A DNA stretch of 64,000 nt from Clostridia bacterium (GCA_017436645.1 JAFSCR010000012.1:1123-65122); one strand, 5' to 3'; positions 4,731 to 37,170 are shown, counted from the first letter of the stretch. The notes: a model not told the origin generated them from the sequence alone. Numbers and translations: made by a program.

Positions 4731-5344
4731 ACGCCCTGCCTCCTAAGATATGCAACGCACTTTCTCGCCAGCCAGTAAATGTTTTCATCATCCTCCAGCT
4801 TCCCGAGCCAAAGCGCTATGTCCGACAAAATGCCTCTGTCGGCAAGTTCCCAGACGATATCGTTAATATTGTCGAGTTCCCGCACCTCACTAATCCTCCT
4901 TTTAAATGCATTCCATTTTTCCCAGTTGTTTGCCATAAGCGCCTCGGGACACAATTTCCGTGATGCATCATAGTGACGTACCACATGCACAATGCCCTCC
5001 TCCGCTTTCAGCCGTTTTACAAGTTCCACGGCGTGGGACAGAGCTTTTTCAAAATCCCCGTCTTCGTTTACGCAGATTTCAATGCCGATGGAATTTGCGT
5101 TGGTAATGCCGTATTTTCCTTTTCCGTCTCCCACATGCCATGTGTAATATTTATGATAATCGTTGATTCTGAGCGCCCCCTTGTCATCTACGACAAAATC
5201 GGCACTCTGCCCCACGTTTCCGCTGTTCCAGTATGCAAAATGCGCCTCGGCATCCGCTCCTTTTCTCGTGTTTCCCGTGGTGTGAATCACAATATATTTC
5301 GCTTTTTCCTGTCTTTTTGTTCTGTTATATGCAATTTGTCTCAT
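4727..5344 (-). CDS. phage endolysin, N-acetylmuramoyl-L-alanine amidase (Amidase_2/PGRP fold)
   Basis: motifs IVIHTTGN, YTWHVGD, NSIGIEICV, RHYDASRKLCP typical of Amidase_2 zinc amidases; sits directly after the holin genes. Confidence 0.85.
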   Translation of the reverse strand: MRQIAYNRTKRQEKAKYIVIHTTGNTRKGADAEAHFAYWNSGNVGQSADFVVDDKGALRINDYHKYYTWHVGDGKGKYGITNANSIGIEICVNEDGDFEKALSHAVELVKRLKAEEGIVHVVRHYDASRKLCPEALMANNWEKWNAFKRRISEVRELDNINDIVWELADRGILSDIALWLGKLEDDENIYWLARKCVAYLRRQGV

Positions 5345-5397
5345 GGTTCCTCCGTTTGTGCCGGCGGCGCCCCGAAGGGCGCACCGACAAATCTATA

Positions 5398-5577
5398 TTA
5401 AAAATGGCGCCTGTCACCGGGGTTATTCACAACGCCAAATGCTACTAAAACTGCAAGTACCAACTCTGTAAATGTATCAAACTGCGGAATTTCAAACCCG
5501 AGCCATGTTTTGGAAACGAATGCCAAAAGTGCAAGGCTTGAAACCCACAAAACAGGGCTTTTCAGTCTTTCAGACAT
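5398..5577 (-). CDS. small holin (59 aa, two predicted TM helices), not in ORF track
   Basis: manual translation MSERLKSPVLWVSSLALLAFVSKTWLGFEIPQFDTFTELVLAVLVAFGVVNNPGDRRHF. Start overlaps the stop of the upstream gene (ATGTCTGA) with a GGAGGAGG RBS. Lies between the XhlA-like gene and the amidase, as in the PBSX xhlA-xhlB-xlyA cassette. Confidence 0.6.
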   Translation of the reverse strand: MSERLKSPVLWVSSLALLAFVSKTWLGFEIPQFDTFTELVLAVLVAFGVVNNPGDRRHF

Positions 5578-25679: not shown

Positions 25680-26560
25680 TCCTTTCTATAGGTAAAAATG
25701 GGAAGCTGTGATAATATAATGGCACCAAACGTCAGCCCACAGCCGAAAAGCTCACGGGCGGAAAAACCTTCATGCATGAGTAGCCAACCGCCAAGGAGCG
25801 CAAACACGGATTCCAGGCTGCATATCAGCGCCGCACTCGTCGGGTCCGTATCCTTTTGTGCCACAATCTGGAGTGTATAGGCAACGCCGCTTGACAAAAT
25901 GCCCGTGTATAAAATGGGCACGGCAGCATCCATTACGCTGATAAGCTTTACATCCTCTACGAAAAACGCCGTAATGAGGGATAAAACGCCTGTTACAAAA
26001 AACTGCAGGCACGCCATATGCACACAGTTCACGCTCGGTGCAAAGTGGTCAATCACAATAATATGAACGGCAAACACCGCCGCACAGCCTAAAAGGAGAA
26101 GGTCGCTTTTTGCCACAGAAAAAGTTGCTCCGTCCATGCAAAGAAGGTACATGCCGAATATGGCAATGCCAACGCTCAGCCACGTTATAAAGGACGCCTT
26201 CTTGCCGAGAAACAGGCGGAAAACAGGCACCAGCACCACATAAAGTGCTGTTATAAACCCTGCCTTCCCTGCACCCGAATCCATGATTCCGACCTGCTGG
26301 AGGCTGGATGCAATAAAAAGAGCGAGGCCACAGGCAAGTCCGCCTAAAAGGGGCCATTTTTTCTCTTTTTCATCCGTTTTATTCTTATCCAAAACAGCAA
26401 TCACAGGGAGAAGCACCGCAGCGCCCAGAAGACTTCTTACGCCGTTAAAAAGGAAGGGACCGCAGTTTTCCATGCCTCGGCTTTGTGCCACAAAAGCCAT
26501 ACCCCAGATAAACGCCGTAAGCATCAGAAGAAAATTGGCTCTGAGCTTTTTACCGTGCAT
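25676..26560 (-). CDS. DMT-superfamily (EamA) transporter
   Basis: 294 aa, 10 TM, two EamA repeats; overlaps the ddh start by 4 nt. Confidence 0.7.
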   Translation of the reverse strand: MHGKKLRANFLLMLTAFIWGMAFVAQSRGMENCGPFLFNGVRSLLGAAVLLPVIAVLDKNKTDEKEKKWPLLGGLACGLALFIASSLQQVGIMDSGAGKAGFITALYVVLVPVFRLFLGKKASFITWLSVGIAIFGMYLLCMDGATFSVAKSDLLLLGCAAVFAVHIIVIDHFAPSVNCVHMACLQFFVTGVLSLITAFFVEDVKLISVMDAAVPILYTGILSSGVAYTLQIVAQKDTDPTSAALICSLESVFALLGGWLLMHEGFSARELFGCGLTFGAIILSQLPIFTYRKD

Positions 26561-27737
26561 ACGAGTCCATCACTTCCTTAATAATATCCATCGCTTCATC
26601 CAGAAGTGCTTCCGTATGGGTTGCCATAAGACTCGTGCGGAGCAGACATTCTCCCGGCGGCGTTGCCGGCGGCAGAACGGGATTTACGAATACGCCTTTT
26701 TCATAAAGCATTTTATTTATAATAAGCGTATCTTCCATTTCATATGTATAAATCGGAACAATGGGCGTTTCCGCTTCTTTAATTTTTATGCCGCGCTTTT
26801 TAAGTCCTTCCCGCATATAGGCACCTAAATCCCGCAGGCGCTCTACTCTTTCCGGCTCTCTTTCAATCACGGAAAGTGCTGCTGCAGCCGCCGCACACTG
26901 TGCAGGCGGAATGGATGCGCTGAAAATAAAGGGACGGGAATTGTGACGGGTAAAGTCAATAATCTTCTCGCTTGCCACCATATACCCACCAAGGCTTGCA
27001 AGAGATTTGGAGAAGGTACCCATAATGACGTCCACTTCGTCCGTAAGGCCGAAATGGTCTGCCGTTCCTCTGCCGCCACGGCCCAGTACGCCAAAGCCAT
27101 GCGCATCGTCCACCATCGTGGCCGCATCATATTTTTTCGCAAGGCGTACAATTTCGGGAAGGTTGCAGATTTCACCGCTCATACTGAAAACGCCATCGGT
27201 TACAATGAGTTTCCCTGCCCCTTCGGGGATTTCCTTCAGATGTTTTTCAAGGTCCTCCATATCGTTATGCTTATAGCGTACGAGGGTTGCAAAGCTGAGT
27301 CTGCAGGCATCATAAATGCTTGCATGGTTTTCTCTGTCACAAAGAATATAGTCATTTCTGCCGGTAATGGCACTGATAATGCCGAGGTTGGACTGAAAGC
27401 CCGTTGAAAACGTCATACAGGCTTCCTTGCCGATATATTTTGCAAGGGCTTCCTCCAGCTCAAGATGCATCTTTAAGGTCCCGTTTAAAAATCGGGAACC
27501 TGAGCAGCCCGTGCCGTATTCTTTGGCAGCACCCACGGCCGCTTCCTGCACCTCGGGATGAACTGTGAGGCCGAGATAGTTATTGGAGCCAAGCATGATT
27601 CTCCGCTTGCCTTCCATGATAACTTCCGTATCCTGTCTGGATTCAAGATAATGAAAATAGGGGTAAATGCCTTTAGCACGGAAATCCCGTGCCAGGGTAA
27701 ATGCTTCGCATTTATCGAATAACGACATATAAATCAC
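26550..27737 (-). CDS. PLP-dependent alpha-oxoamine synthase (BioF/Kbl/serine palmitoyltransferase family)
   Basis: 395 aa; PLP-lysine motif GTFSKSLASLGGY, HASI, DDAHG; first gene of the AOS-EamA-ddh operon. Confidence 0.75.
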   Translation of the reverse strand: MIYMSLFDKCEAFTLARDFRAKGIYPYFHYLESRQDTEVIMEGKRRIMLGSNNYLGLTVHPEVQEAAVGAAKEYGTGCSGSRFLNGTLKMHLELEEALAKYIGKEACMTFSTGFQSNLGIISAITGRNDYILCDRENHASIYDACRLSFATLVRYKHNDMEDLEKHLKEIPEGAGKLIVTDGVFSMSGEICNLPEIVRLAKKYDAATMVDDAHGFGVLGRGGRGTADHFGLTDEVDVIMGTFSKSLASLGGYMVASEKIIDFTRHNSRPFIFSASIPPAQCAAAAAALSVIEREPERVERLRDLGAYMREGLKKRGIKIKEAETPIVPIYTYEMEDTLIINKMLYEKGVFVNPVLPPATPPGECLLRTSLMATHTEALLDEAMDIIKEVMDSYAR

Positions 27738-27920
27738 TCCTTAACGCCTTATTATACCATTTTTATGCACGTTTCGTCAAATATATTTCAAAAAATGTAT
27801 AAAATATACCCATTTTCTCGTTTCCGTCAAAATCGGGGGCCGAATCTGCCCATGTAACTGCAAGAAAAAACACTTCTCGCCTGCCGCAAAAATTTTTTCA
27901 AAAAATTTCAAAAAAAAATC

Positions 27921-27949
27921 TTGACAACCGCTATTTTCTGTTGTATACT
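27921..27949 (+). promoter_or_regulatory. sigma-70 promoter TTGACA-17-TATACT for perR-rbr
   Basis: consensus hexamers upstream of the perR RBS GGAGGTGGCG. Confidence 0.55.
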
Positions 27950-27990
27950 AAAACAGTAATAATTCCTATTATTATTTTGGAGGTGGCGAA

Positions 27991-28374
27991 ATGCAAAAAC
28001 GAAGTCGGCAACGTGAGCTTCTTCTGGAAATTCTTTGCGGCACCACCTGTCATCCGGATGCGGACTGGGTCTTTTCCAAAATGCGGGAGAAAATGCCGAA
28101 TGTGTCCTTAGGCACCGTATACCGCAATCTTGCCCGTCTTTCCGAAGAAGGCGTTATTCTGAAGCTGGATGTAGGGCAAGGTGCGGATAGGTTTGACGGC
28201 TGCAATGACCCCCATTACCATCTGGCCTGCCGCTGCTGTGGCGCCGTAGTAGATGTGCCCATGGCATACACCCCGGCATTAAATGATACGGCAAAAAAAG
28301 AAAGCGGCTGTGAAATTGAAAGTCACTCCCTTTTGTTTTTCGGTAAATGCCCGTCCTGTACGGGAATAAAATAA
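27991..28374 (+). CDS. perR: Fur-family peroxide-responsive repressor (PerR-like)
   Basis: 127 aa; Fur-family layout with C-terminal CxxC...CxxC structural zinc site; directly upstream of rubrerythrin. Confidence 0.7.
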   Translation: MQKRSRQRELLLEILCGTTCHPDADWVFSKMREKMPNVSLGTVYRNLARLSEEGVILKLDVGQGADRFDGCNDPHYHLACRCCGAVVDVPMAYTPALNDTAKKESGCEIESHSLLFFGKCPSCTGIK

Positions 28375-28408
28375 AAAATGAATGAAAATTTTTTGGAGGA
28401 ATGAAAGT

Positions 28409-28951
28409 ATGAAAAAATTTGTATGTGCAATCTGTGGTTATGTTCACGAAGGCAATGAAGCCCCTGCCGCTTGCCCCCAGTGCAAAGCGCCGGCTTCTAA
28501 ATTCTCCGAGCAGGCAGGCGAAAAATCCTGGGCTGCAGAACATATTGTAGGCGTAGCAAAAGGTGTAGACCCCGAAATCATCGAAGGTCTCCGCATGAAC
28601 TTTACAGGTGAATGCACCGAAGTCGGCATGTACCTTGCCATGGCAAGAGTTGCCCATCGTGAAGGCTATCCCGAAATCGGTCTTTACTGGGAAAAGGCAG
28701 CTTATGAAGAAGCCGAACACGCTGCAAAGTTTGCAGAACTTCTCGGCGAAGTTGTAACCGACAGCACAAAGAAAAACCTGGAACTTCGCATTGACGCCGA
28801 AAACGGCGCAACACAGGGTAAATTTGACCTTGCAAAACGTGCAAAAGAACTGAATCTCGACGCTATTCACGACACCGTTCATGAAATGGCAAGGGATGAA
28901 GCAAGACATGGCAAGGCTTTCGAGGGACTTTTGAAGAGATATTTTGGTTAA
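28409..28951 (+). CDS. rbr: rubrerythrin-family protein with N-terminal rubredoxin-like CxxC...CxxC domain (reverse rubrerythrin)
   Basis: ORF track 28382..28951; start [15 protein letters not shown]... with GGAGGAATGAAAGT RBS; ferritin-like ExxH di-iron motifs ([22 protein letters not shown]). Confidence 0.8.
28895..28951 (+). repeat. direct repeat copy 1 (native rbr 3' end, encodes [18 protein letters not shown]-stop)
   Basis: 57-bp segment repeated at 30348-30404 and 34010-34066 with synonymous differences. Confidence 0.8.
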
Positions 28952-28978
28952 TCTAAAATGTTGAAATAACAACACTTA

Positions 28979-29034
28979 AAAACCCCTTAACAGTAGGCAT
29001 TACCTATTGTCAAGGGGTTTAATTTTTATATTTT
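28979..29034 (+). terminator. terminator hairpin after rbr (AAACCCCTTAACA...TGTCAAGGGGTTT + T-rich)
   Basis: 13-bp imperfect inverted repeat followed by AATTTTTATATTTT. Confidence 0.4.
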
Positions 29035-29092
29035 CAAAATGGTTATTCAAATTGTGGTTGAAATCTCAACATTACAGTAAAATTGATGTTCA

Positions 29093-29232
29093 AACTGGCA
29101 ACAACTGGCGTTTTGAAGGTCATTTAAATAGTATTTTAGATACAACTGGCAACAAATTGCCGGTTAATCTCTTGAAAGTCTTGTCCTGCAAGGGTTTGAT
29201 GGTTGTTATAGAAGCAAATTTTGTTGCCAGTT
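29093..29232. repeat. three copies of 12-mer AACTGGCAACAA (two direct, one inverted); candidate arm-type recombinase or regulator binding sites
   Basis: AACTGGCAACAA at ~29093 and ~29144, TTGTTGCCAGTT at ~29221; also palindrome GTTGAAATCTCAAC at ~29057. Confidence 0.5.
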
Positions 29233-29325
29233 GCACACACTTTATGAAGTTAATTTATATAAACATATTTACATAATAGATAATTTAAGGTATAATTATA
29301 AAAAAATAAATTTGGAGGACTTTTT

Positions 29326-30273
29326 ATGAATAAGTCAGTAAAAATATTATCAATTATTTCTATTATACTTTCTCTCATAGGTGTTTTACTTGCTACAGCA
29401 ATTTTGACATTTCTTTGGGAGCCGATTAATGTTTTGTTAAATAGTCCTGAAGTTATTGCAAAAGCTACACCTATCATTCCAAGAGGAAATATGGTATATA
29501 TATTAGGATGTGTTATTATTTCTTTAGTTCTTCTTGCGAGTTATAAATCAAGAAAGTTTATTGTAATTGAGATTTTATCAATAGTTTTCTTAAGTTTTCT
29601 TCTTCCTTGTTTAACTTATAGACTTGAATTGAATCAAACTATGCTGGTAGGACATACTATGGGTAGCAATTCTATAGCTATCTTAGGGACTGCAAATAGT
29701 ATAATGGCTATTCCAGTAGGTTTTGTAAACTTGTCCGTTGCATTGAGCTTGATAACAAGCGGAATTAGAATTATAGAAAAAGTTTTTTCGAACAAGAAAA
29801 TACCGATTAATGTATTATCAATAATTTCGGTAATTATTTCTGCTATTTCATTTTTGATTTCGATAGCTGTATTAACAATCTTCTGGGAACCAATGGTTTC
29901 ACTCTATGTTTCCTCAGTTGATATTATTAATTACCGACCGATTTTACCTATTGGAAGTGTTTTATACATAGTTGCTTGCTTAATTATCTCGATTATTCTT
30001 GTAATTAGCAAAAAATCAAATGGATCTTTTGCAATTGAGATTATCACAATGTCATTGTTGGGCTTCGGAGTTCCGGTTTTGATGTGGATTTTAAATTTGG
30101 TGCAACAATTTAACGTAAACGCTATTGGCGTCAGTGCTGTAACAGAATTTCTTATATCAAACAAGGTGCTTGTATCTTCAATTGGTATTATGAAATTATC
30201 TTCAGCTATATGCTTGGTGGTTTGTGGAATGCGAATAGCATACAAAAACAATTATAAAAAAACAATGCAGTAA
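29326..30273 (+). CDS. integral membrane protein with internal tandem duplication (2 x ~155 aa), unknown function
   Basis: halves align: VKILSIISIILSLIGVLLATAILTFLWEPINVLL...PIIPRGNMVYILGCVIISLVLLASYKS versus INVLSIISVIISAISFLISIAVLTIFWEPMVSLY...PILPIGSVLYIVACLIISIILVISKKS; RBS GGAGGA. Confidence 0.6.
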   Translation: MNKSVKILSIISIILSLIGVLLATAILTFLWEPINVLLNSPEVIAKATPIIPRGNMVYILGCVIISLVLLASYKSRKFIVIEILSIVFLSFLLPCLTYRLELNQTMLVGHTMGSNSIAILGTANSIMAIPVGFVNLSVALSLITSGIRIIEKVFSNKKIPINVLSIISVIISAISFLISIAVLTIFWEPMVSLYVSSVDIINYRPILPIGSVLYIVACLIISIILVISKKSNGSFAIEIITMSLLGFGVPVLMWILNLVQQFNVNAIGVSAVTEFLISNKVLVSSIGIMKLSSAICLVVCGMRIAYKNNYKKTMQ

Positions 30274-30347
30274 ATGGCTATTGATAAAAATTAGTCCACG
30301 TTGAATTTACAGCAAAAAACTGATAAATTCAATTTGATAATAACTAT

Positions 30348-30404
30348 GACGAAGCTCGTCACGGCAAGGCATTCGAAGGTCTTTTAAAGAGATACTTTAA
30401 GTAA
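30348..30404 (+). repeat. direct repeat copy 2 (encodes [18 protein letters not shown]-stop, AT-rich codons)
   Basis: GACGAAGCTCGTCACGGCAAGGCATTCGAAGGTCTTTTAAAGAGATACTTTAAGTAA. Confidence 0.8.
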
Positions 30405-30473
30405 GATACAAAAACCAACAGGAGCAAAGGCTTTGAGCCTTTGCTCCTTGTCTTTTCCATATATTTGGATTTG

Positions 30474-31010
30474 TTAGTTTAATTTATGCAATAAAAAGTA
30501 AGGTTTCCTTCCCACTTGAATCAAATTTGTCACATCAGAAATATCATAATCGTTCTTTTTATACACTTGCAAAAATTCCTGTTCGCTTGAATAAATCATT
30601 TCTTGTCCATACCACGATTTAGATGATTGCGGAGTAAGCTCTAAATATACTGCTTTACCTTCTGCAACAAATGTAAGTATTGTATGTACTTTGTTTTTCT
30701 TCTTGTTATATATTAACCATATTTTATTCGAAACACTTAGATTATCAAGAATTGATTTCATTACTACGACAGCATCTACACAGGTCCCGATTTTTTCCTT
30801 CAGCGTGACAGACGGATCTTGAACCGTGTAAATCGTTTTAGAAAAATGATCGTATTCTTTGTCAAAACCCTTATCCATGTTTGGCTTGTATTTTTTACCT
30901 TCCACAATAAAGCCATATTCAAAACCGTTGTTATATAATTCCGCCCGCAGTATATCACATATTTCTTTGATGCTCATTTTTGTATTTTCCCCGTCCATGT
31001 TTATATTCAA
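30474..31010 (-). CDS. hypothetical protein (178 aa), possible Cys/His hydrolase fold
   Basis: ORF in island 2 on the opposite strand; contains GTCVDAVVVM (Cys) and KVHTILTF (His) about 37 aa apart, loosely papain/NlpC-like spacing; no firm family assignment. Confidence 0.4.
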   Translation of the reverse strand: MNINMDGENTKMSIKEICDILRAELYNNGFEYGFIVEGKKYKPNMDKGFDKEYDHFSKTIYTVQDPSVTLKEKIGTCVDAVVVMKSILDNLSVSNKIWLIYNKKKNKVHTILTFVAEGKAVYLELTPQSSKSWYGQEMIYSSEQEFLQVYKKNDYDISDVTNLIQVGRKPYFLLHKLN

Positions 31011-31180
31011 ACCGCTTTTATGCCTTCAGTATATCATAAGTGCGCTGCTATTTCAATACAGATCATGGTGTTTTGTCTACTTAAAACTAAAAAATATATC
31101 ATGTAAAAGAAAATGGTGAAATGCTGGCACACAAAATCTCCTATTTTTATTTAACTTTCTTAAGCCTTTGCGAAAATATA

Positions 31181-31209
31181 TTGAATTTATATGATGTTTG
31201 TGTTATAAT
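31181..31209 (+). promoter_or_regulatory. promoter TTGAAT-17-TATAAT upstream of the XRE-Fic-DUF262-HEPN cassette
   Basis: near-consensus hexamers with 17-nt spacer about 30 nt before the XRE gene. Confidence 0.45.
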
Positions 31210-31242
31210 ATAGAATAATGAATTATAATTGAGGTGACCATT

Positions 31243-31452
31243 TTGACTATATCTTATAATAAGCTATGGAAATTATTGATAGATAAAAAACTAAGTAAGG
31301 TTGCCTTGCGTAAAAATGCCGATATTGCACCAAATACAATGACAAAGTTACGGCGAGATGAGCCGGTTTCTATGTTGATACTTTTAAAAATAGCTGAATA
31401 TCTGGAATGTGATATAAGTGATATGTGTGAATTTGTAAAGGAGGAAAAGTAA
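31243..31452 (+). CDS. XRE-family helix-turn-helix DNA-binding protein (Cro/CI-type)
   Basis: ORF track 31234..31452 (GTG); TTG at 31243 has better RBS spacing (GAGGTGA). HTH_3/HTH_26-like LSKVALRKNADIAPNTMTKLRRDE; stop 1 nt before the Fic start. Confidence 0.65.
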   Translation: MTISYNKLWKLLIDKKLSKVALRKNADIAPNTMTKLRRDEPVSMLILLKIAEYLECDISDMCEFVKEEK

Positions 31453-31453
31453 T

Positions 31454-32182
31454 ATGAACTTTGAGAGAATACAAAAAAAGAAACTTAAATACGAACAAAA
31501 CAAGCATAAGATAAGTCCGATTACTTTATCTTCCTACGAAAAAGATTTTGAGCTTACTTTTACTCACAATTCAACTGCTATTGAAGGAAACACTCTGACT
31601 CTCATGGAAACAAAAGTTGTTTTGGAAGACGGAGTTGCAATAGGCGGAAAAGAGCTTCGTGAAATATACGAGGTTATTAATCATAAAAAAGCATATGGTT
31701 ATGTAAAAAAATGCATTGCAGAAAAGAAACCCATAGATGAGAATATCGTTAAAGACCTACATGCAATACTTACAGAAAATATAATAGTTGGCGGTATATA
31801 CAGGAATGAAGAAGTTCGTATAAGCGGTGCGGGATTTACACCTCCTGCCGGAAACGAAATGTATATGCAGATTAAAAAGTTCTATGAAGATTTAAAAATA
31901 AAAGAAAAAGAATTAAACACGATAGAACTTGCTGCATGGACACATGCTGAGTTTGTACGAATTCACCCATTTGTTGACGGTAACGGAAGAACAGGCCGCC
32001 TGATTATGAATTATCAGCTTTTGCTTAACGGATACCTGCCCGTTTCTGTTGCCAAGGAAAATAGACTTGAGTACTATAATGCGCTTGAACAATATGCAGT
32101 AAATGGAGATTTGGCTGTTTTTGCGGACTTCGTTGCAGAATTAGAAGAAGTGCAGTTAGATGAATACATGAAATTGATGTAA
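31454..32182 (+). CDS. Fic/Doc family protein (Fido domain), class II with N-terminal inhibitory motif
   Basis: active-site HPFVDGNGRTGR fits HxFx(D/E)GNGRxxR; inhibitory-helix motif STAIEG fits (S/T)xxxE(G/N) about 40 aa from the N-terminus. Confidence 0.85.
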   Translation: MNFERIQKKKLKYEQNKHKISPITLSSYEKDFELTFTHNSTAIEGNTLTLMETKVVLEDGVAIGGKELREIYEVINHKKAYGYVKKCIAEKKPIDENIVKDLHAILTENIIVGGIYRNEEVRISGAGFTPPAGNEMYMQIKKFYEDLKIKEKELNTIELAAWTHAEFVRIHPFVDGNGRTGRLIMNYQLLLNGYLPVSVAKENRLEYYNALEQYAVNGDLAVFADFVAELEEVQLDEYMKLM

Positions 32183-32239
32183 TACGTCTGGAATAATAAT
32201 ATAGTTTGAGTAATATAATATTAGGAGGAAAACATAAAC

Positions 32240-33394
32240 ATGGATACTAATTGGTATGTAGATTATAATGATGATATGGAGGAAAGCGTGAAAGAATACG
32301 ATATAACAGCGACTCCAAACGATTTTAATATTATGACAATTTTTAGTTTGATTGATAATGGAGTAATTAAAATGCCTCCATTTCAACGCAATTATGTATG
32401 GGATGAAAAAAGGGCATCTAAACTCATAGAGTCTATTATATTAGGATTGCCGGTTCCTCAAGTATTTTTATATGAACAGGATAAAAATAGCTTTTATGTC
32501 ATTGATGGTCAGCAACGCCTTTTATCAATATACTTTTTCATAAAACAAAGATTTCCAACAAAAGAGGGAAAAGTAGCTCTCAGGCAATATCTTATGGGGG
32601 ATACAAAGATTAATGATGAGATTTTGGCTGACGATAAACTTTTTAGAAACTTCAAACTCAGATTACCTGCTTTAGCAAACGAGGAACAAAACAAATTTGA
32701 TAAATTAAAATACGACCAATTGGGTGATTATAAAAATACATTTGAAATAATGAGAACAATACGTTCAGTTGTTATTAAGCAAAACGAACCAGATGACGAT
32801 TCTTCTATTTATGAGATATTTAATAGGTTAAATACCGGCGGGCAGAATCTATCTCCTCAGGAAATAAGAATGAGTTTATATTATTCAGAATTCTACAAAG
32901 AACTGATTCATTTAAACGAAAATCCTGTATGGAGAAAATTTTTAAGAAGAGATGTTTGTGATGTTCATTTTAAAGATGTTGAGATATTGCTACGTGCATT
33001 CGCAATGTTGTTAGAATACAAATCATATCGTTCTCCTATGGGTAAATTTCTTAACACATTCTCAAAAAAGACAAGTAATTTTAAAAGTGAAACATTAAGC
33101 TATTTATCGTCGTTGTTTTTATCATTCTTAGATAGTTGTAAAAATTTAGATGATAATATTTTCTGTACAAAAAATGGACAGTTTGCAATTTCTTTGTTTG
33201 AGGCGGTATTTGTCGCTGCATGTTACAAATGTTTGGAAGAGAAGAAGACCTTAGACGGAAATCTTAGTCAAGATAGCATTTTAGAATTAAAAGAAAATAA
33301 AAAGTTTATAGACTCAAATCAAGGCAGTGTTGCCTCAAAAACAAACTTAACAACACGAATCGAAAAAGCAATTGAGATAATTAAGTTTGAATAG
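32240..33394 (+). CDS. DUF262 (ParB/Srx-like nuclease-fold, GmrSD N-terminal-type) domain protein
   Basis: hallmark motifs PFQRNYVWD and DGQQRL in the first 100 aa; 384 aa; no DUF1524/HNH C-terminal partner domain recognised. Confidence 0.75.
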   Translation: MDTNWYVDYNDDMEESVKEYDITATPNDFNIMTIFSLIDNGVIKMPPFQRNYVWDEKRASKLIESIILGLPVPQVFLYEQDKNSFYVIDGQQRLLSIYFFIKQRFPTKEGKVALRQYLMGDTKINDEILADDKLFRNFKLRLPALANEEQNKFDKLKYDQLGDYKNTFEIMRTIRSVVIKQNEPDDDSSIYEIFNRLNTGGQNLSPQEIRMSLYYSEFYKELIHLNENPVWRKFLRRDVCDVHFKDVEILLRAFAMLLEYKSYRSPMGKFLNTFSKKTSNFKSETLSYLSSLFLSFLDSCKNLDDNIFCTKNGQFAISLFEAVFVAACYKCLEEKKTLDGNLSQDSILELKENKKFIDSNQGSVASKTNLTTRIEKAIEIIKFE

Positions 33395-33404
33395 GAGGTT
33401 TTTT

Positions 33405-33923
33405 ATGTCATCTCCTATTCAAAAATTTATTGAAGATTATAAGAATTTAAATAATTTTCTTATTTCGAATGGACAAATTTCATCTTCGGTAGATATAAAT
33501 GAACATTACAGAAAAATTCTTCTATTATCCTGTGCCAGTTATTATGAAACGCAGATAATTGATATTTTGAAAGCGTTTGTAAAACTAAATTCTACTGACG
33601 ATAGAATATTTTCGTTTATGAATAATAAAGCTATTCAACGGCAGTATTATACATATTTTGATTGGGATCAAACAAGTAATATAAATAAATTTTTAGGAAT
33701 GTTTGGTGAAGAATTCAAAACAACGATTTCGAACGAAATAAAGAGAAATAATGATTTAACATTGCAAGTAAAAGCTTTTCTTGAAATAGGTTCAGAAAGA
33801 AATAAAATGGTTCATAGGAATTTTTTGGAATATAAACTTGATAAAACATTTGATGAAATTACAGAGCTACATAATAAAGCACAATTATTTATAGAGTATA
33901 TAAGACAAAAATTATGCGATTAA
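33405..33923 (+). CDS. HEPN-like protein (Rx4H motif, MAE_28990/Abi-like), putative RNase partner of DUF262
   Basis: ORF track 33387..33923; start MSSPIQKF with AGGAGG RBS 6 nt upstream, 10 nt after the DUF262 stop. Candidate HEPN motif ERNKMVHRNF (R-x4-H) near the C-terminus; all-helical character. Confidence 0.5.
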   Translation: MSSPIQKFIEDYKNLNNFLISNGQISSSVDINEHYRKILLLSCASYYETQIIDILKAFVKLNSTDDRIFSFMNNKAIQRQYYTYFDWDQTSNINKFLGMFGEEFKTTISNEIKRNNDLTLQVKAFLEIGSERNKMVHRNFLEYKLDKTFDEITELHNKAQLFIEYIRQKLCD

Positions 33924-34009
33924 ATTTTCTTGCATAATTTTACAAAATATGCTATAATAAAACTATAAAACAGATGCAACGACAAAAGACTTTTTGATTG
34001 GACCTCTGT

Positions 34010-34066
34010 GACGAAGCTCGACACGGTAAGGCATTCGAAGGTCTTTTAAAGAGATACTTTGGTTAA
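34010..34066 (+). repeat. direct repeat copy 3 (encodes [18 protein letters not shown]-stop)
   Basis: GACGAAGCTCGACACGGTAAGGCATTCGAAGGTCTTTTAAAGAGATACTTTGGTTAA; immediately followed by the RBS of the bfd-like gene. Confidence 0.8.
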
Positions 34067-34084
34067 AGAAAAGGAGGTCTTCCC

Positions 34085-34288
34085 GTGGAAAACTATATGG
34101 TTTGTAACTGCAAACAGGTAAGTCATTTTGACATTGTGGATGCTATGCAGAAAAGCACACACTTTGATGATGTGCTCCTCGCTTTTGAGGATGTGCAGAA
34201 GCTGACAAACTGTTCTACCGGTTGCGGCGGATGTTATCCCAAGGTTCTGGATATTATTTCTGAAATCATGCAGGGAAATGTTCGTTAA
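34085..34288 (+). CDS. BFD-like [2Fe-2S]-binding domain protein (bacterioferritin-associated ferredoxin-like)
   Basis: GTG start with AAGGAGG RBS; Cys pattern CxC...CxxC (MVCNCKQV...CSTGCGGC) typical of BFD-like domain; 67 aa. Confidence 0.65.
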   Translation: MENYMVCNCKQVSHFDIVDAMQKSTHFDDVLLAFEDVQKLTNCSTGCGGCYPKVLDIISEIMQGNVR

Positions 34289-34303
34289 ATACGCTTTGAA
34301 AAG

Positions 34304-34331
34304 GTCACGCCCCACGGGGCGTGATTTTTTT
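34304..34331 (+). terminator. rho-independent terminator (GTCACGCCCC..GGGGCGTGA + T7)
   Basis: GC-rich hairpin followed by a T-run right after the bfd-like stop. Confidence 0.6.
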
Positions 34332-34421
34332 ATGTAAAAATAATTTTAGTGTACTGTTTTTGGGACACCTTCTTTACTATACTGATATTGTAAGCAAAAG
34401 AAAGTATTGGAGGTACAAACG

Positions 34422-34742
34422 ATGAAAACAAGAGAAAATTCTTCTTATAACAGAAAATTTGCCGAAGTTTATGAAATGGTTATGGAAAACGGAAACACGG
34501 CTTTAAAACCCCTGGCACCCCTTCCCGCTCGCCCCAATTTATATCTTGTGCCGAAAACGGATGTGGCCGAGGCGAGGGAAGATGCCCCCTGTCGCCCCCA
34601 TTCTCTTTCAAAATACATTCTGGGCTTTGTGGGACTTGCCTGCCTTTTTGCGCTCCTTGGCCATAGTGGCGCCCTCGTTGGCGATTTGCTCGGCTGTGGC
34701 GCCGTTGCGTATTTTGCCACAAGAAGCCTTGTGGAAGAATAA
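34422..34742 (+). CDS. small membrane protein, unknown function
   Basis: ORF track 34407..34742; ATG at 34422 with GGAGGTACAAAC RBS; C-terminal hydrophobic segments; followed by a hairpin. Confidence 0.45.
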   Translation: MKTRENSSYNRKFAEVYEMVMENGNTALKPLAPLPARPNLYLVPKTDVAEAREDAPCRPHSLSKYILGFVGLACLFALLGHSGALVGDLLGCGAVAYFATRSLVEE

Positions 34743-34822
34743 AAGCATCCCCCCTCGCCTTCTCCCTCCCCATATATAGCATGAGGAAATGCAAGGCGCC
34801 TTGCGTTTCCTTATGCAAAAAT

Positions 34823-34851
34823 TGACTTTTCCTTGCACCTGTGCTATACTT
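34823..34851 (+). promoter_or_regulatory. promoter TTGACT-17-TATACT for the PAP2 gene
   Basis: near-consensus hexamers with 17-nt spacer. Confidence 0.45.
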
Positions 34852-34876
34852 TTAAAAAAACGTGCCGAGGAAAACA

Positions 34877-35413
34877 ATGCTTGAAACGATTTATCACTAT
34901 GATTTTTTAATACTGGACTTTCTAAGAGACCATTTGCATTGTCCCTTTCTGGATGGGGTGATGCCCGTTTTCTCCTTTCTCGGGAACGGGGGCGCTTTGT
35001 GGCTTTTAGTGACGCTTTACCTCATCACTACGAAAAAACACCGAAGGCACGGTGTCCTTCTGCTCATCGGCCTTGCAGTAGGGTTTATCTGTGTAAGCCT
35101 TCTTTTAAAGCCCCTCATCGCACGGCCCCGCCCCTCCTGGCTTATGCCCGAGGTTCTGCTTTTAATTCCGAATCCTGCGGATTTTTCTTTTCCGTCAGGG
35201 CACACCATGGCATCCTTCGTCGCTGCCTTTCTTCTTCTGAAATACCGTCGTCCCTTAGGACTTGCGGCACTCCCCGTGGCAATTTTAATTGCCTTTTCAA
35301 GGCTGTATCTTTATGTGCATTACCCGAGCGATGTGCTGTTTTCCATTCTCCTTGCCGCCATGGTTTCATTTTTAATTATAAAATTCGATAAAAGAAGGAG
35401 CTGTTCAAAATGA
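34877..35413 (+). CDS. PAP2-family phosphatase (undecaprenyl-diphosphatase-like)
   Basis: ORF track 34862..35413; PAP2 motifs KPLIARPRP, PSGHT, SRLYLYVHYPSDV. Confidence 0.8.
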   Translation: MLETIYHYDFLILDFLRDHLHCPFLDGVMPVFSFLGNGGALWLLVTLYLITTKKHRRHGVLLLIGLAVGFICVSLLLKPLIARPRPSWLMPEVLLLIPNPADFSFPSGHTMASFVAAFLLLKYRRPLGLAALPVAILIAFSRLYLYVHYPSDVLFSILLAAMVSFLIIKFDKRRSCSK

Positions 35414-35427
35414 ACAGCTCCTTTTTT
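35394..35427. terminator. bidirectional terminator hairpin AAGGAGCTGTTCAAAATGAACAGCTCCTT + T-run
   Basis: perfect palindrome between convergent PAP2 and rapZ; shares core CTGTTCAAAWTGAACAG with the terminator at 24670. Confidence 0.6.
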
Positions 35428-36283
35428 ATGCCTTATGTATATCTCTGTGCGAAAGTTGGCAGGCAACACCTGCATTGCTGAGCGCCGCCGCCAAAAATCT
35501 TGCCACAGTAACCGAACGATGCTTACCGCCCGTGCACCCTATGGAAATGACAAGGTTACTCTTCCCTTCCTCCATGTACTGGGGAACAAGGAAGTTTACC
35601 ATTTCCACGAGCTTGTCGCAAAACACCCTGCTTTGGGGGTACGCCATAATAAAGTCGTAAACGGGGGCATCAAGGCCTGTAAGCGGCTTTAGCTCCGGTT
35701 CATAAAAGGGATTGGGGAGAAAACGCACGTCAAATACCAGGTCACTATCCAGCGGAATGCCGTATTTAAACCCGAAGGACATAATATCCACCGTCATCCC
35801 CGTACCGCCGGCCGTCTCGGAAAAGAGATCCCGCATCCGTTTTTTCAGGTGCTGGGGAAGCATATTTGAAGTGTCCACCACATGGGTGGCCATTTTTTTA
35901 ATGTCCCCGAGAATTTCCCGTTCTTTCACAATGCCGTCAATGGCACGGCCGCCGGGTGCCAGAGGATGAGAACGGCGGGTTTCCTTGTAACGGGCAATCA
36001 GGGTTTCGTCCTGTGCATCGAGAAACAGAATTTCAAACGGCAACCCTTTTTCCCGCATTTCTTCCAGTTCTCCGGAAAGCTCTTTGAACATACTGCCGCT
36101 TCGAACGTCTACCACAAGTGCCACATGGTCCAGTTTTCCCTGAGACTGGGCGCACATTTCCGCAAACTTGCTGACAAGAATGGGCGGCAGGTTGTCCACA
36201 CAATAATAATTCATGTCCTCAAGGCATCTGAGGGCACGGGTACGCCCTGCCCCCGAAAGACCTGTTATCACTATAAATTTCAT
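35426..36283 (-). CDS. rapZ: RNase adapter protein RapZ (YvcJ, P-loop NTPase)
   Basis: MKFIVITGLSGAGRTRALRCLEDMNYYCVDNLP Walker A and family-typical sequence; 285 aa. Confidence 0.85.
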   Translation of the reverse strand: MKFIVITGLSGAGRTRALRCLEDMNYYCVDNLPPILVSKFAEMCAQSQGKLDHVALVVDVRSGSMFKELSGELEEMREKGLPFEILFLDAQDETLIARYKETRRSHPLAPGGRAIDGIVKEREILGDIKKMATHVVDTSNMLPQHLKKRMRDLFSETAGGTGMTVDIMSFGFKYGIPLDSDLVFDVRFLPNPFYEPELKPLTGLDAPVYDFIMAYPQSRVFCDKLVEMVNFLVPQYMEEGKSNLVISIGCTGGKHRSVTVARFLAAALSNAGVACQLSHRDIHKA

Positions 36284-37170
36284 GTAAATTCCCCCACGAA
36301 CTGTATTTCAGGCTCTAAAAGAACGCCATGGGTTTCTCTGACTTTTTCCTGTACCGCCAGAAGAAGCCGCCGCACGTCTTTCGCCGTTGCATTTCCCGTA
36401 TTTACCACAAAGCCTGCATGCTTTTCCGACACGGCCGCACCGCCTATGGAAAAGCCCCGAAGGCCCGCTTCATCTATCATTTTCGCCGCAAACCCATCTT
36501 TCGGGCGCTTAAAGGCACTGCCTGCGCTGGGCAGGGTCAGCGGCTGTTTTTCCCGTCTTTTTACGGAGAGTTCTTCCATCTCTCGCCTGATTGCATCACT
36601 TTCGCCCGCCCAAAGCTTAAAAACGACGTCGGTGATAATCATGTCTTTGCCCATATAAACGCTGTGGCGGTAGGAAAAGCCGTGGTCGAAGGATTCCCCT
36701 TCTTCGCCGTCCGGCGTTACAAAGCGTACGCTTTCTATCACATCCGCCATCTCGCCGCCATAGGCCCCTGCATTCATAATAACAGCGCCGCCGCAGGTTG
36801 CCGGTATCCCCGAAAGTGGTGCCATACCGCAAAGTCCTTTTTCCATGGCCATACGGCTGACTGCCCCAAGGGACGCCCCTGCATCGGCATAAATACGGTT
36901 CCCTTCCGCACGGATAGAGGAAAACCGACTTCCCATACGGATAATGACGCCTCTATATCCTCCGTCCCCTACAAGAAGGTTTGTGCCGTTCCCGATGACA
37001 AGATGGGGCACAGCTTTGCAAGCTTCCAAAACGGCCCGAAGCTGTGCGGTGTTTTCAGGCTCTGCCAGAAGGTCCGCCGGTCCGCCGATTTTAAAGCTCG
37101 TATATTTTTTCATGTCTGCACCCCTTTTCGAGGGGCAGATTTTTTCTATGGCAGAAAAAACTGCTTCCAT
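36280..37170 (-). CDS. murB: UDP-N-acetylenolpyruvoylglucosamine reductase MurB
   Basis: FAD-binding KIGGPADLLAEP, VIGNGTNLLV motifs; the start could instead be at the internal MKKYTSFKIGG. Confidence 0.85.
   Translation of the reverse strand: MEAVFSAIEKICPSKRGADMKKYTSFKIGGPADLLAEPENTAQLRAVLEACKAVPHLVIGNGTNLLVGDGGYRGVIIRMGSRFSSIRAEGNRIYADAGASLGAVSRMAMEKGLCGMAPLSGIPATCGGAVIMNAGAYGGEMADVIESVRFVTPDGEEGESFDHGFSYRHSVYMGKDMIITDVVFKLWAGESDAIRREMEELSVKRREKQPLTLPSAGSAFKRPKDGFAAKMIDEAGLRGFSIGGAAVSEKHAGFVVNTGNATAKDVRRLLLAVQEKVRETHGVLLEPEIQFVGEFT

Follow-up and report, generated by a model that had tools for sequence, protein, structure and literature searches.

The genes described here lie on the forward strand of a 64,000-nucleotide stretch of a Clostridia bacterium genome (GCA_017436645.1, JAFSCR010000012.1:1123-65122), which is referred to as the window and from whose first nucleotide all positions are counted. 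Four intact open reading frames, all on this strand, encode in this order an XRE regulator, a Fic protein, a DUF262 protein, and a HEPN protein, and they are separated by gaps of 1, 57, and 10 nt. They belong to an islet at 28952-34005 whose GC content is 0.306 (30.6%) compared to 0.478 and 0.503 in its two flanks and to 48-50% for the genome. A sequence-only reading of this DNA had proposed four same-strand genes with these spacers behind one promoter on a foreign AT-rich island, with domains of the kind found in defence or toxin systems, and all of these elements were recovered, as were the four domain assignments given below. The islet is small and lacks an integrase, and the site at which it inserted was probably a rubrerythrin gene's 3' end. 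The intact rubrerythrin gene contains this 3' end at 28891-28951, a further copy lies within the islet at 30344-30403, and a right-hand copy at 34006-34065 on the forward strand forms the islet boundary (direct-repeat family D1). The two islet copies are 95% identical to each other and 75% identical to the resident gene end. Such copies flank the islet and they travel with the modules in other contigs too. No tRNA that might serve as an attachment site was found within the window, the search for tandem repeats gave no meaningful arrays, and there was no Rfam match at E <= 0.1 in 26000-37000 that would indicate an RNA antitoxin or other structured RNA.

The promoter that had been proposed upstream of the first gene, TTGAAT-17-TATAAT, is located at 31181-31209 on the forward strand, and its -10 hexamer is preceded by TG, as in an extended -10 element. 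Across seven diverged loci with an overall column identity of 71%, neither hexamer varies; by count, promoter-like matches in the AT-rich stretch are not above chance (31 observed and 28.6 expected). The first gene (31243-31452, forward strand) encodes a small Cro/C1-type regulator of 69 amino acids that matches Pfam HTH_26 at 2.1e-15. The program-made reading frame spans 31234-31452 but the real start is the TTG at 31243, because the ribosome binding site TTGAGGTGA is invariant and the aligned start in locus L114 is an ATG; the gene is annotated as 69 amino acids in L214 as well. Its stop lies 1 nt ahead of the ATG of the Fic gene, and the regulator is probably an HTH repressor that is translationally coupled to the Fic gene, the two together having their own conserved promoter. 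As a partner of this Fic family it was found only among the closest relatives.

The Fic protein (31454-32182, forward strand, 242 amino acids, Pfam Fic 7.1e-22) carries the inhibitory motif STAIEGN at residues 40-46 (31571-31591) and the active-site motif HPFVDGNGRTGR at residues 171-182 (31964-31999). Since STAIEGN is N-terminal to HPFVDGNGRTGR within the same chain, the protein is a class II Fic, as had been proposed, and with its inhibitory glutamate intact it should by default be inactive. It has the Fic core HPFx(D/E)GNGRxxR and the N-terminal inhibitory helix (S/T)xxxE(G/N) in common with SoFic, PDC-S04, and FICD-like class II proteins. Among solved structures human FICD comes closest (2.8e-31), in an alignment that takes in its TVAIEGNTLTL region, and the sequence is nearer to FICD than to SoFic. 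A class I FicT-FicA or Doc-Phd toxin with the XRE protein as its antitoxin was ruled out, given that the inhibitory helix is in cis and that the partner is an HTH_26 DNA-binding protein; the score against the Doc model TIGR01550 was 24.6 bits where the cut-off is 38.65.

The DUF262 gene (32240-33394, forward strand) encodes a ParB-like NTPase of 384 amino acids that matches Pfam GmrSD_N at 2.3e-33. The match covers residues 33-214 only, no other Pfam domain was found, and the C-terminal half is all-helical and has no HNH nuclease domain; a Pfam hmmscan gave no match to the DUF1524 domain. The motifs FQRNYVW (32381-32401), DGQQR (32504-32518), and FNRLN (32819-32833) are all on the forward strand. 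The protein would be an NTPase of the ParB/Srx fold in which the QRxxxW, DGQQR, and FxxxN motifs are intact and whose helical C-terminal domain is like those of NsnA, GmrSD, and SspE. Matches to the PADLOC models for SspE, HEC-05, and HEC-06 were limited to the N-terminal 70 or so residues. In the AlphaFold model the N-terminal half is poor (mean pLDDT 67.8) and therefore the fold matches of this protein carry little weight. The last gene (33405-33923, forward strand) starts with an ATG behind an AGGAGG ribosome binding site and encodes a HEPN protein of the RiboL-PSP family (172 amino acids, PF18735 at 9.1e-20). It has both the Rx4-6H motif and the four-helix core that define the HEPN superfamily, the motif being R132-N-K-M-V-H137 at 33798-33815 on the forward strand, and N139, which is two residues past the catalytic histidine, is invariant across 38 HEPN homologs. 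Searches of PDB sequences with the DUF262 or the HEPN profile returned nothing useful. Beyond this gene, at 33930-33958 on the forward strand, lies an outward-facing promoter-like element (TTGCAT, 17 nt, TGCTATAAT) that is almost invariant across L002, L019, and L020 and whose function is putative.

When the locus was compared by blastn to other contigs, it resolved into two forward-strand blocks of homology, one containing the XRE and Fic genes (module 1, 31132-32199) and the other containing the DUF262 and HEPN genes (module 2, 32207-33985). Locus L020 matches module 1 over 31132-32199 at 92.5% and L021-L026 match it over 31134-32183 at 87%, and module 2 is matched by L002 over 32207-33985 at 90.8% and by L019 at 98.5% up to 33985. 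The boundary between the modules falls within the 57-nt spacer (32183-32239, forward strand), where homology to XRE-Fic loci stops at 32183 or 32199 and homology to DUF262-HEPN loci begins at 32207, so that the junction is at about 32200-32206. This spacer also holds the ribosome binding site of the DUF262 gene and a weak -10-like TATAAT at 32214-32219 without a good -35.

What lies next to each module in other genomes also differs. The nearest relatives of the XRE-Fic pair (93-96% identity) have different genes downstream, DUF262-HEPN is not downstream of XRE-Fic in any of L020-L026, and about 95 loci have Fic or XRE-Fic but lack DUF262-HEPN. A set of 80 metagenomic Fic loci contained neither DUF262 nor HEPN genes. 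The DUF262 and HEPN genes on the other hand are strictly paired, and in about 110 other loci, spread over several phyla, they form this pair with no Fic beside it. We fetched 117 loci with a near-full HEPN homolog, from bacteria, archaea, and viral contigs, and a full DUF262 gene is directly upstream of HEPN in 110 of them. Viral-contig loci had the pair in 15 out of 15 cases. Across all fetched loci, the identities of the DUF262 and HEPN proteins to the copies in the window co-vary (Spearman 0.82). When one genome per species was taken, from Bacillota, Cyanobacteria, Proteobacteria, Chloroflexi, Bacteroidota, Actinobacteria, and archaea, a DUF262 homolog was immediately upstream on the same strand in 76 of the 79 HEPN loci that could be assessed, and a Fic gene was within 10 kb of HEPN in only 1 of 80, and there the two genes are 9 kb apart and on opposite strands, with the Fic at 28% identity. 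From the plasmid collection came one HEPN match only, a distant one carried by an Exiguobacterium plasmid, and an E. coli prophage has a pair, distinct from the PD-T4-2 pair of E. coli discussed below, whose proteins are 43% and 35% identical to those in the window (found by blastn from a Stutzerimonas homolog). Pairs of DUF262 with RiboL-PSP HEPN make up a very widespread family whose two members are strictly linked and co-vary, and besides bacteria and archaea it extends to prophages and viral contigs. What precedes the pair differs between loci and may be an SLFN_AlbA_2 ATPase, an HTH gene with a DNA methylase, or an AlwI-type restriction-modification system; in the closest relatives, L002 and L194, whose HEPN proteins are 91% and 83% identical, it is the SLFN_AlbA_2 ATPase and not Fic.

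We therefore put the probability at about 0.8 that the cassette is two independently mobile two-gene modules side by side, an XRE-Fic module and a DUF262-HEPN module of the PD-T4-2 type. No locus but this organism's own (L214 and similar contigs) was found to have all four genes together. The arrangement is stable there, and apart from a remnant in L020 no other adjacency of Fic and DUF262-HEPN was seen among 99 Fic loci and 117 HEPN loci. L020, from a related MAG, has kept XRE-Fic along with the final ~53 nt of the HEPN reading frame, joined across a 7-nt microhomology, ATAATAA, via which DUF262-HEPN was deleted. The remnant shows that the four-gene arrangement was already present in a lineage about 8% diverged, before the split from L020. 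A likely course of events is that the intergenic region which usually precedes the DUF262-HEPN pair was lost here and that transcripts from the XRE-Fic promoter now probably run on into the pair, in which case the arrangement would be an operon fusion by accident of insertion and not a four-part machine.

The sequence-only reading had favoured one unit instead, an arrangement it did not know as a described system, in which Fic, DUF262, and HEPN would be effectors that act together in abortive infection under the control of XRE. Its appeal is in the layout, since the genes are co-directional and closely spaced, one conserved promoter is upstream, no terminator-like hairpins were found between the four genes, which makes their co-transcription possible, the order is the same in several assemblies of this organism, and the L020 remnant places it in a second lineage as well. 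Against it, the homology blocks break within the spacer, the nearest relatives of DUF262-HEPN have another gene upstream, L020 dropped one half and kept the other, and outside this lineage Fic adjoins none of about 115 DUF262-HEPN loci while DUF262-HEPN is in none of about 95 Fic loci. The neighbourhood comparison by which that reading was to be checked therefore found essentially no co-occurrence of the four genes elsewhere, the exceptions being this lineage and the L020 remnant, and we consider a composite of all four very improbable. A narrower form of it is that Fic AMPylates or de-AMPylates the HEPN RNase or DUF262 and so gates the RNase as MntA gates HepT, with XRE setting the level of all three. 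In HepT-MntA a HEPN toxin is neutralised by AMPylation. However, MntA is an MNT-fold AMP-transferase whereas the enzyme in the window has the Fic fold, HepT has a tyrosine two residues past the catalytic histidine (RX4HXY; Y109 in 7ae2) whereas this HEPN family has the invariant N139 there, and this HEPN family is normally found without any Fic. A HepT-like AMPylation site in the HEPN protein was ruled out accordingly, N139 being in place of the tyrosine. The gating idea is kept in view because the genes are probably co-transcribed and the arrangement was inherited by two lineages about 8% diverged, but it is a very long shot; if true, it would amount to a Fic-regulated HEPN defence system. 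More generally, the stable and older arrangement with no terminator between the modules leaves room for a secondary functional interaction.

As for what module 2 does, the two-module reading would make it an anti-phage system with the architecture of PD-T4-2, and this half of the cassette is of a system type that had already been described. PD-T4-2 of E. coli ECOR65, listed as 'DUF262, HEPN', protects against T4, as tested also by deletion in the native strain, and the top HHpred hits of its components A and B are PF03235 at 99.7% and PF18735 at 97.8% (Vassallo 2022, PMC9519451). Both PD-T4-2 and module 2 are two-gene operons of similar sizes in which a small HEPN gene follows the DUF262 gene, they share the Pfam families PF03235 and PF18735, and a DUF1524 nuclease and a methylase are absent from both. 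They differ in that the pair in the window is without its own intergenic region, is behind a Fic gene, and is in a low-GC Clostridia host. The PADLOC model PD-T4-2_B gave no match to the HEPN protein in the window at E <= 0.1 and matched its relatives weakly (L039 at 6.7e-5, L106 at 0.009, and E. coli L193 at 2e-4), and PD-T4-2_A matched the DUF262 protein at 2.7e-39 but with a lower score than NsnA. Module 2 is therefore a distant branch, and its link to PD-T4-2 is one of shared Pfam families and architecture and not of close similarity. The same association was recorded earlier by Anantharaman 2013 (PMC3710099), where the RiboL-PSP HEPN is entered in Table 1 as 'operon with ParB' and as distant kin of AbiD/AbiF, and where its predicted role is that of a defence RNase beside a DNA-targeting partner, a purely computational prediction for which no mechanism was proposed. 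DUF262 may sense invading DNA, possibly modified DNA, and its NTP-dependent switch may license the partner HEPN RNase, which with its catalytic residues R132 and H137 would cut RNA so that phage multiplication stops.

The best PADLOC match of the DUF262 protein is to NsnA of the Menshen system (1.7e-55, full length), which has a ParB-DUF262 domain followed by a helical C-terminal 'ParBDB' domain and for which a role as a sensor alongside an RNase effector has been proposed (Millman 2022; Gu et al. 2025, PMC12065111). This match is real and it could be taken to mean that the protein is a Menshen NsnA, or else a GmrSD-type type IV restriction enzyme, and that the HEPN gene is incidental. Menshen, however, has the NsnB ATPase and NsnC, whereas here a separate HEPN effector gene is directly downstream of DUF262 and is followed by the end of the islet, the islet having neither an NsnB ABC ATPase nor an NsnC gene, and on these grounds Menshen was ruled out. 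A GmrSD, BrxU, or SspE type IV restriction enzyme was likewise ruled out, as there is no DUF1524 His-Me/HNH nuclease and the C-terminus is helical throughout. That the HEPN gene accompanies DUF262 in 110 of 117 loci and co-varies with it argues against its being incidental, and this explanation of the pair has very little chance of being right. DARNA is the same system as PD-T7-3 and has a different HEPN protein, and hence it is irrelevant.

Quite another question is whether module 1 also works against phage, in which case the islet would be a miniature defence island and harbour two functional anti-phage systems, each independent of the other, XRE-Fic itself causing abortive infection by AMPylating a host target such as EF-Tu. 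The Fic protein matches the PADLOC models PDC-S04 at 2.6e-44 and SoFic at 1.6e-30, and members of its family are found on prophages (phrog_11900, 1.1e-50) and on integrative or conjugative elements. SoFic, a class II Fic, is a validated single-gene defence active against T5 and has been termed an Abi toxin (PMC11514479, PMC12249575), and it AMPylates EF-Tu (bioRxiv 10.64898/2026.07.09.737422). PDC-S04, however, is a candidate and not a validated system, and the SoFic match covers only positions 62-269 of the 361 in the profile. The C-terminal domain of SoFic, which is needed for its toxicity (PMC12249575), is absent from the 242-residue Fic, whose score against the NCBIfam SoFic equivalog is 40.7 bits where the cut-off is 550. 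The short 'SoFic' homologs of S. thermophilus gave minimal protection (PMC11514479), EcSofic has a downstream AS1 antitoxin instead of the upstream HTH_26 gene seen here, the closest solved relative, FICD, is a regulatory AMPylase and deAMPylase, and the protein in the window is expected to be inhibited in the resting state. Two working systems on one islet are possible, though at somewhat less than even odds. In the two-module reading the Fic protein is an autoinhibited FICD-like class II AMP-transferase, common cargo of mobile elements and independent of module 2, and it may act in abortive infection in the manner of SoFic or PDC-S04.

These results call for caution, in that tight co-directional packing of genes on a foreign islet is no evidence for a single system, and they show that such cases are settled quickly by the boundaries of homology blocks together with a comparison of neighbourhoods. 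In these bacteria small cargo islets appear to have inserted repeatedly at the 3' end of rubrerythrin genes, which would make it an insertion hotspot. Finally, module 2 points to a branch of the DUF262-HEPN family in gut or rumen Clostridia that the standard PADLOC PD-T4-2_B model would miss.

The four genes are all intact and lie on the plus strand with spacers of 1, 57 and 10 nt. The first codes for a 69-aa Cro/C1-type HTH protein, XRE (31243-31452; Pfam HTH_26, 2.1e-15), and its TTG start at 31243 was preferred to the GTG at 31234 from which the mechanical ORF runs because its RBS is invariant and the comparison locus L114 has an ATG at the aligned position. It is followed by the genes for a 242-aa Fic protein (31454-32182; Pfam Fic, 7.1e-22), a 384-aa DUF262 protein (32240-33394; Pfam GmrSD_N, 2.3e-33) with the motifs FQRNYVW, DGQQR and FNRLN and, behind an AGGAGG RBS, a 172-aa HEPN protein (33405-33923; Pfam HEPN_RiboL-PSP, 9.1e-20) with the motif R132-x4-H137. 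The promoter TTGAAT-17-TATAAT (31181-31209, plus strand) came from a sequence scan, and promoter-like matches in this AT-rich DNA occur at chance frequency (31 found, 28.6 expected); this one is invariant in seven loci whose identity is otherwise only 71%. The GC content is 30.6% over 28952-34005 and 48-50% in both flanks. The sequence-only reading thus held for the gene families, strand, spacers, promoter and foreign AT-rich DNA, but it had also taken the four genes as a single composite defense unit under XRE control, and this part is not supported because the genes fall into two homology blocks with separate neighborhoods.

When the region was compared by blastn with contigs that carry homologs, those with XRE-Fic aligned from 31132/31134 to 32183/32199 (92.5% in the related MAG L020 and 87% in L021-L026) and those with DUF262-HEPN aligned over 32207-33985 (90.8% in L002 and 98.5% in L019), the junction of the two blocks falling inside the 57-nt spacer. 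On these alignments, the cassette is two modules rather than one. In the closest relatives of DUF262-HEPN, L002 and L194, the gene upstream is a 487-aa SLFN_AlbA_2/HATPase_c_4 gene; other DUF262-HEPN loci have an HTH gene, a DNA methylase gene and a gene without assigned function, with serine recombinases on both sides, and another set of neighbors is an AlwI-type R-M system. Where XRE-Fic has its nearest relatives (93-96% identity at the protein level), the genes that follow are alcohol dehydrogenase, PepSY or small genes without assigned function.

An alignment of HEPN homologs served to scan one genome per species, and the neighbors were identified by tblastn. The scan gave 80 loci, spread over archaea and many bacterial phyla, and in 76 of the 79 that could be assessed a DUF262 homolog was directly upstream on the same strand, the other three having different upstream partners. 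Fic was within 10 kb of HEPN at a single locus, where it was 9 kb off, on the opposite strand and 28% identical, and in the viral contigs all 15 loci had the DUF262-HEPN pair and none had Fic. Conversely, neither DUF262 nor HEPN was found at any of 80 loci with Fic relatives (62-94% identity) in a metagenome scan, and XRE was present only beside the two closest of these; it accompanies only the closest Fic clade. Over all fetched loci, 117 HEPN genes are near full length, and 110 of them have a full DUF262 gene directly upstream; DUF262 and HEPN co-vary in their identity to the window copies (Spearman 0.82). Fic is in the same locus as the pair only in L214, which is the window organism in another assembly, and in L001 and L062, which have unrelated Fic genes some distance away. 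Conservation of the four genes as one unit is therefore largely contradicted, since across the censuses, outside this lineage, DUF262-HEPN pairs occur without Fic and Fic without the pair. Two independent assemblies of the same organism from other samples, L215 and L216, end within the 3' end of Fic, at 102-103 nt before the start of DUF262, which would be expected if a highly conserved Fic module occupies several genomic contexts in those metagenomes.

L020 carries the same islet, in which the rubrerythrin 3' end, the terminator, XRE and Fic are followed directly by what is left of the HEPN ORF, its final ~53 nt, and then by its downstream sequence. The junction (L020 6735-6750) reads GGAATAATAA followed by AGCAC, the equivalent of window 32200-33870, that is DUF262 and most of HEPN, is missing, and the heptamer ATAATAA is present at both window sites, ~32193 and ~33866 (32190-32199 and 33864-33877). 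Given the shared heptamer and the HEPN remnant, L020 is a microhomology-mediated deletion derivative. It shows that the four-gene order is older than the ~8% divergence of the window and L020 lineages and that XRE-Fic persists without DUF262-HEPN.

The intergenic DNA upstream of DUF262 is 146-243 nt in other loci, of which the window retains 33 nt; the 57-nt spacer has a -10-like TATAAT (32214-32219) with no good -35, and no terminator was found after Fic in a hairpin scan of the window cassette. Read-through from the XRE-Fic promoter into DUF262-HEPN is therefore likely, but it would be a consequence of the juxtaposition. A functional coupling in which Fic AMPylates HEPN as MntA does HepT is very improbable, because this HEPN family has an invariant Asn in place of the HepT tyrosine two residues past the catalytic His and because the family normally occurs without any Fic.

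Within the XRE-Fic module, XRE is translationally coupled to Fic across the 1-nt gap. The inhibitory motif STAIEGN (aa 40-46) of Fic is in the same chain as the active-site motif HPFVDGNGRTGR (aa 171-182) and N-terminal to it, and Fic is therefore class II, as had been proposed; with its inhibitory glutamate intact, the enzyme is expected to be inactive by default. The nearest solved structures are human FICD/HYPE (2.8e-31), a match that takes in the TVAIEGNTLTL-type inhibitory helix, and C. elegans FIC-1, followed by BtFic and C. difficile Fic; SoFic and similar bacterial structures are further off, SoFic matching at 1e-7 only, in the active-site region. In PADLOC, Fic matched PDC-S04, an unvalidated candidate, at 2.6e-44 and the SoFic Fic core at 1.6e-30, but against the NCBIfam SoFic equivalog it scored 40.7 bits, below the cut-off of 550, and it lacks the C-terminal domain that is needed for SoFic toxicity (PMC12249575). 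The Fic family is very large (>7,500 matches) and is carried on mobile elements, as seen from a match to phrog_11900 (1.1e-50) and from relatives that adjoin a Tn916-type integrase or VirB4/TraG-like ATPases. A defense role of Fic is possible but doubtful.

The AT-rich DNA adjoins an intact rubrerythrin gene (28382-28951), the 3' end of which (28891-28951) is repeated as direct repeats of ~55-60 nt at 30344-30403 and 34006-34065, and it is therefore split into two tandem islets. Identity is 95% between these two copies and 75% between them and the end of the resident gene. The first islet holds a gene for a 315-aa multi-pass membrane protein (29326-30273) for which Pfam, PADLOC and NCBIfam gave no match; the protein is internally duplicated, with the DNA repeat D4 at 29422 and 29803 and matching halves in translation. 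The second begins with a bidirectional terminator with a perfect 13-bp stem (30420-30448), followed by a 178-aa minus-strand ORF (30474-31010) that faces away from the cassette, and then by the XRE, Fic, DUF262 and HEPN genes. The 178-aa ORF matched nothing in PHROG and had only sub-threshold matches elsewhere (transglutaminase-like DUF553, E 0.018), and L020 is without most of it (window 30584-31131). There is no integrase in the islet; related contigs have tyrosine integrases or integrase fragments close by. The same rubrerythrin fragment accompanies the modules elsewhere (L002 53-108, L019 1521-1596, L021-L026 ~5339-5410) and FUR-rubrerythrin is directly upstream of XRE-Fic in several unrelated contigs (L020, L024, L027-31 and L197). 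The rubrerythrin 3' end looks like a recurrent att-like integration/recombination hotspot. The third rubrerythrin copy is directly before a Fer2_BFD gene, a place held in L001 and L002 by a rubrerythrin/ferritin gene. A stretch of ~74 nt that separates the rubrerythrin remnant from the region downstream of HEPN in L019 (1448-1520) and L020 (6854-6926), absent from the window at 33985/33986, holds GTGGGCAAA three times (TCTGTGGGCAAAAAATTCTTGTGGGCAAACGGTGGGCAAA), and these repeats could be recombinase-binding repeats of the islet attachment site. After the HEPN stop, an outward-facing promoter-like element (33930-33958; TTGCAT, 17 nt, TGCTATAAT), almost invariant in L002, L019 and L020, points toward the Fer2_BFD gene, and this putative promoter might allow the gene that the insertion displaced to be expressed again.

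The RiboL-PSP HEPN family was listed as paired with a ParB-like protein in 2013 ('operon with ParB', Table 1, PMC3710099). PD-T4-2 of E. coli ECOR65, labelled 'DUF262, HEPN' by its discoverers, confers protection from T4 as a cloned system and also in the strain it comes from (PMC9519451), and the best HHpred matches of its A and B proteins are PF03235 (99.7%) and PF18735 HEPN_RiboL-PSP (97.8%), respectively (PMC9519451 supplement). The window proteins also match phage families (DUF262, phrog_2598, 4.6e-83; HEPN, phrog_15536, 1.4e-48) and are 43% and 35% identical, respectively, to a DUF262-HEPN pair in a prophage of E. coli NRG 857C. That pair (NC_017634.1 1208536-1210252) lies between the head and tail genes of a lambdoid prophage, adjoins a truncated duplicate major capsid gene and by appearance is a moron-like insertion; its DUF262 gene is present in 31 of 5,426 complete E. 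coli genomes. Like PD-T4-2, the second module is a two-gene DUF262 and HEPN pair of the families PF03235 and PF18735, and we conclude that it belongs, as a distant member, to the PD-T4-2-type DUF262-HEPN systems. Going by these families, the DUF262 NTPase may act as a sensor of foreign DNA and would then license the HEPN RNase.
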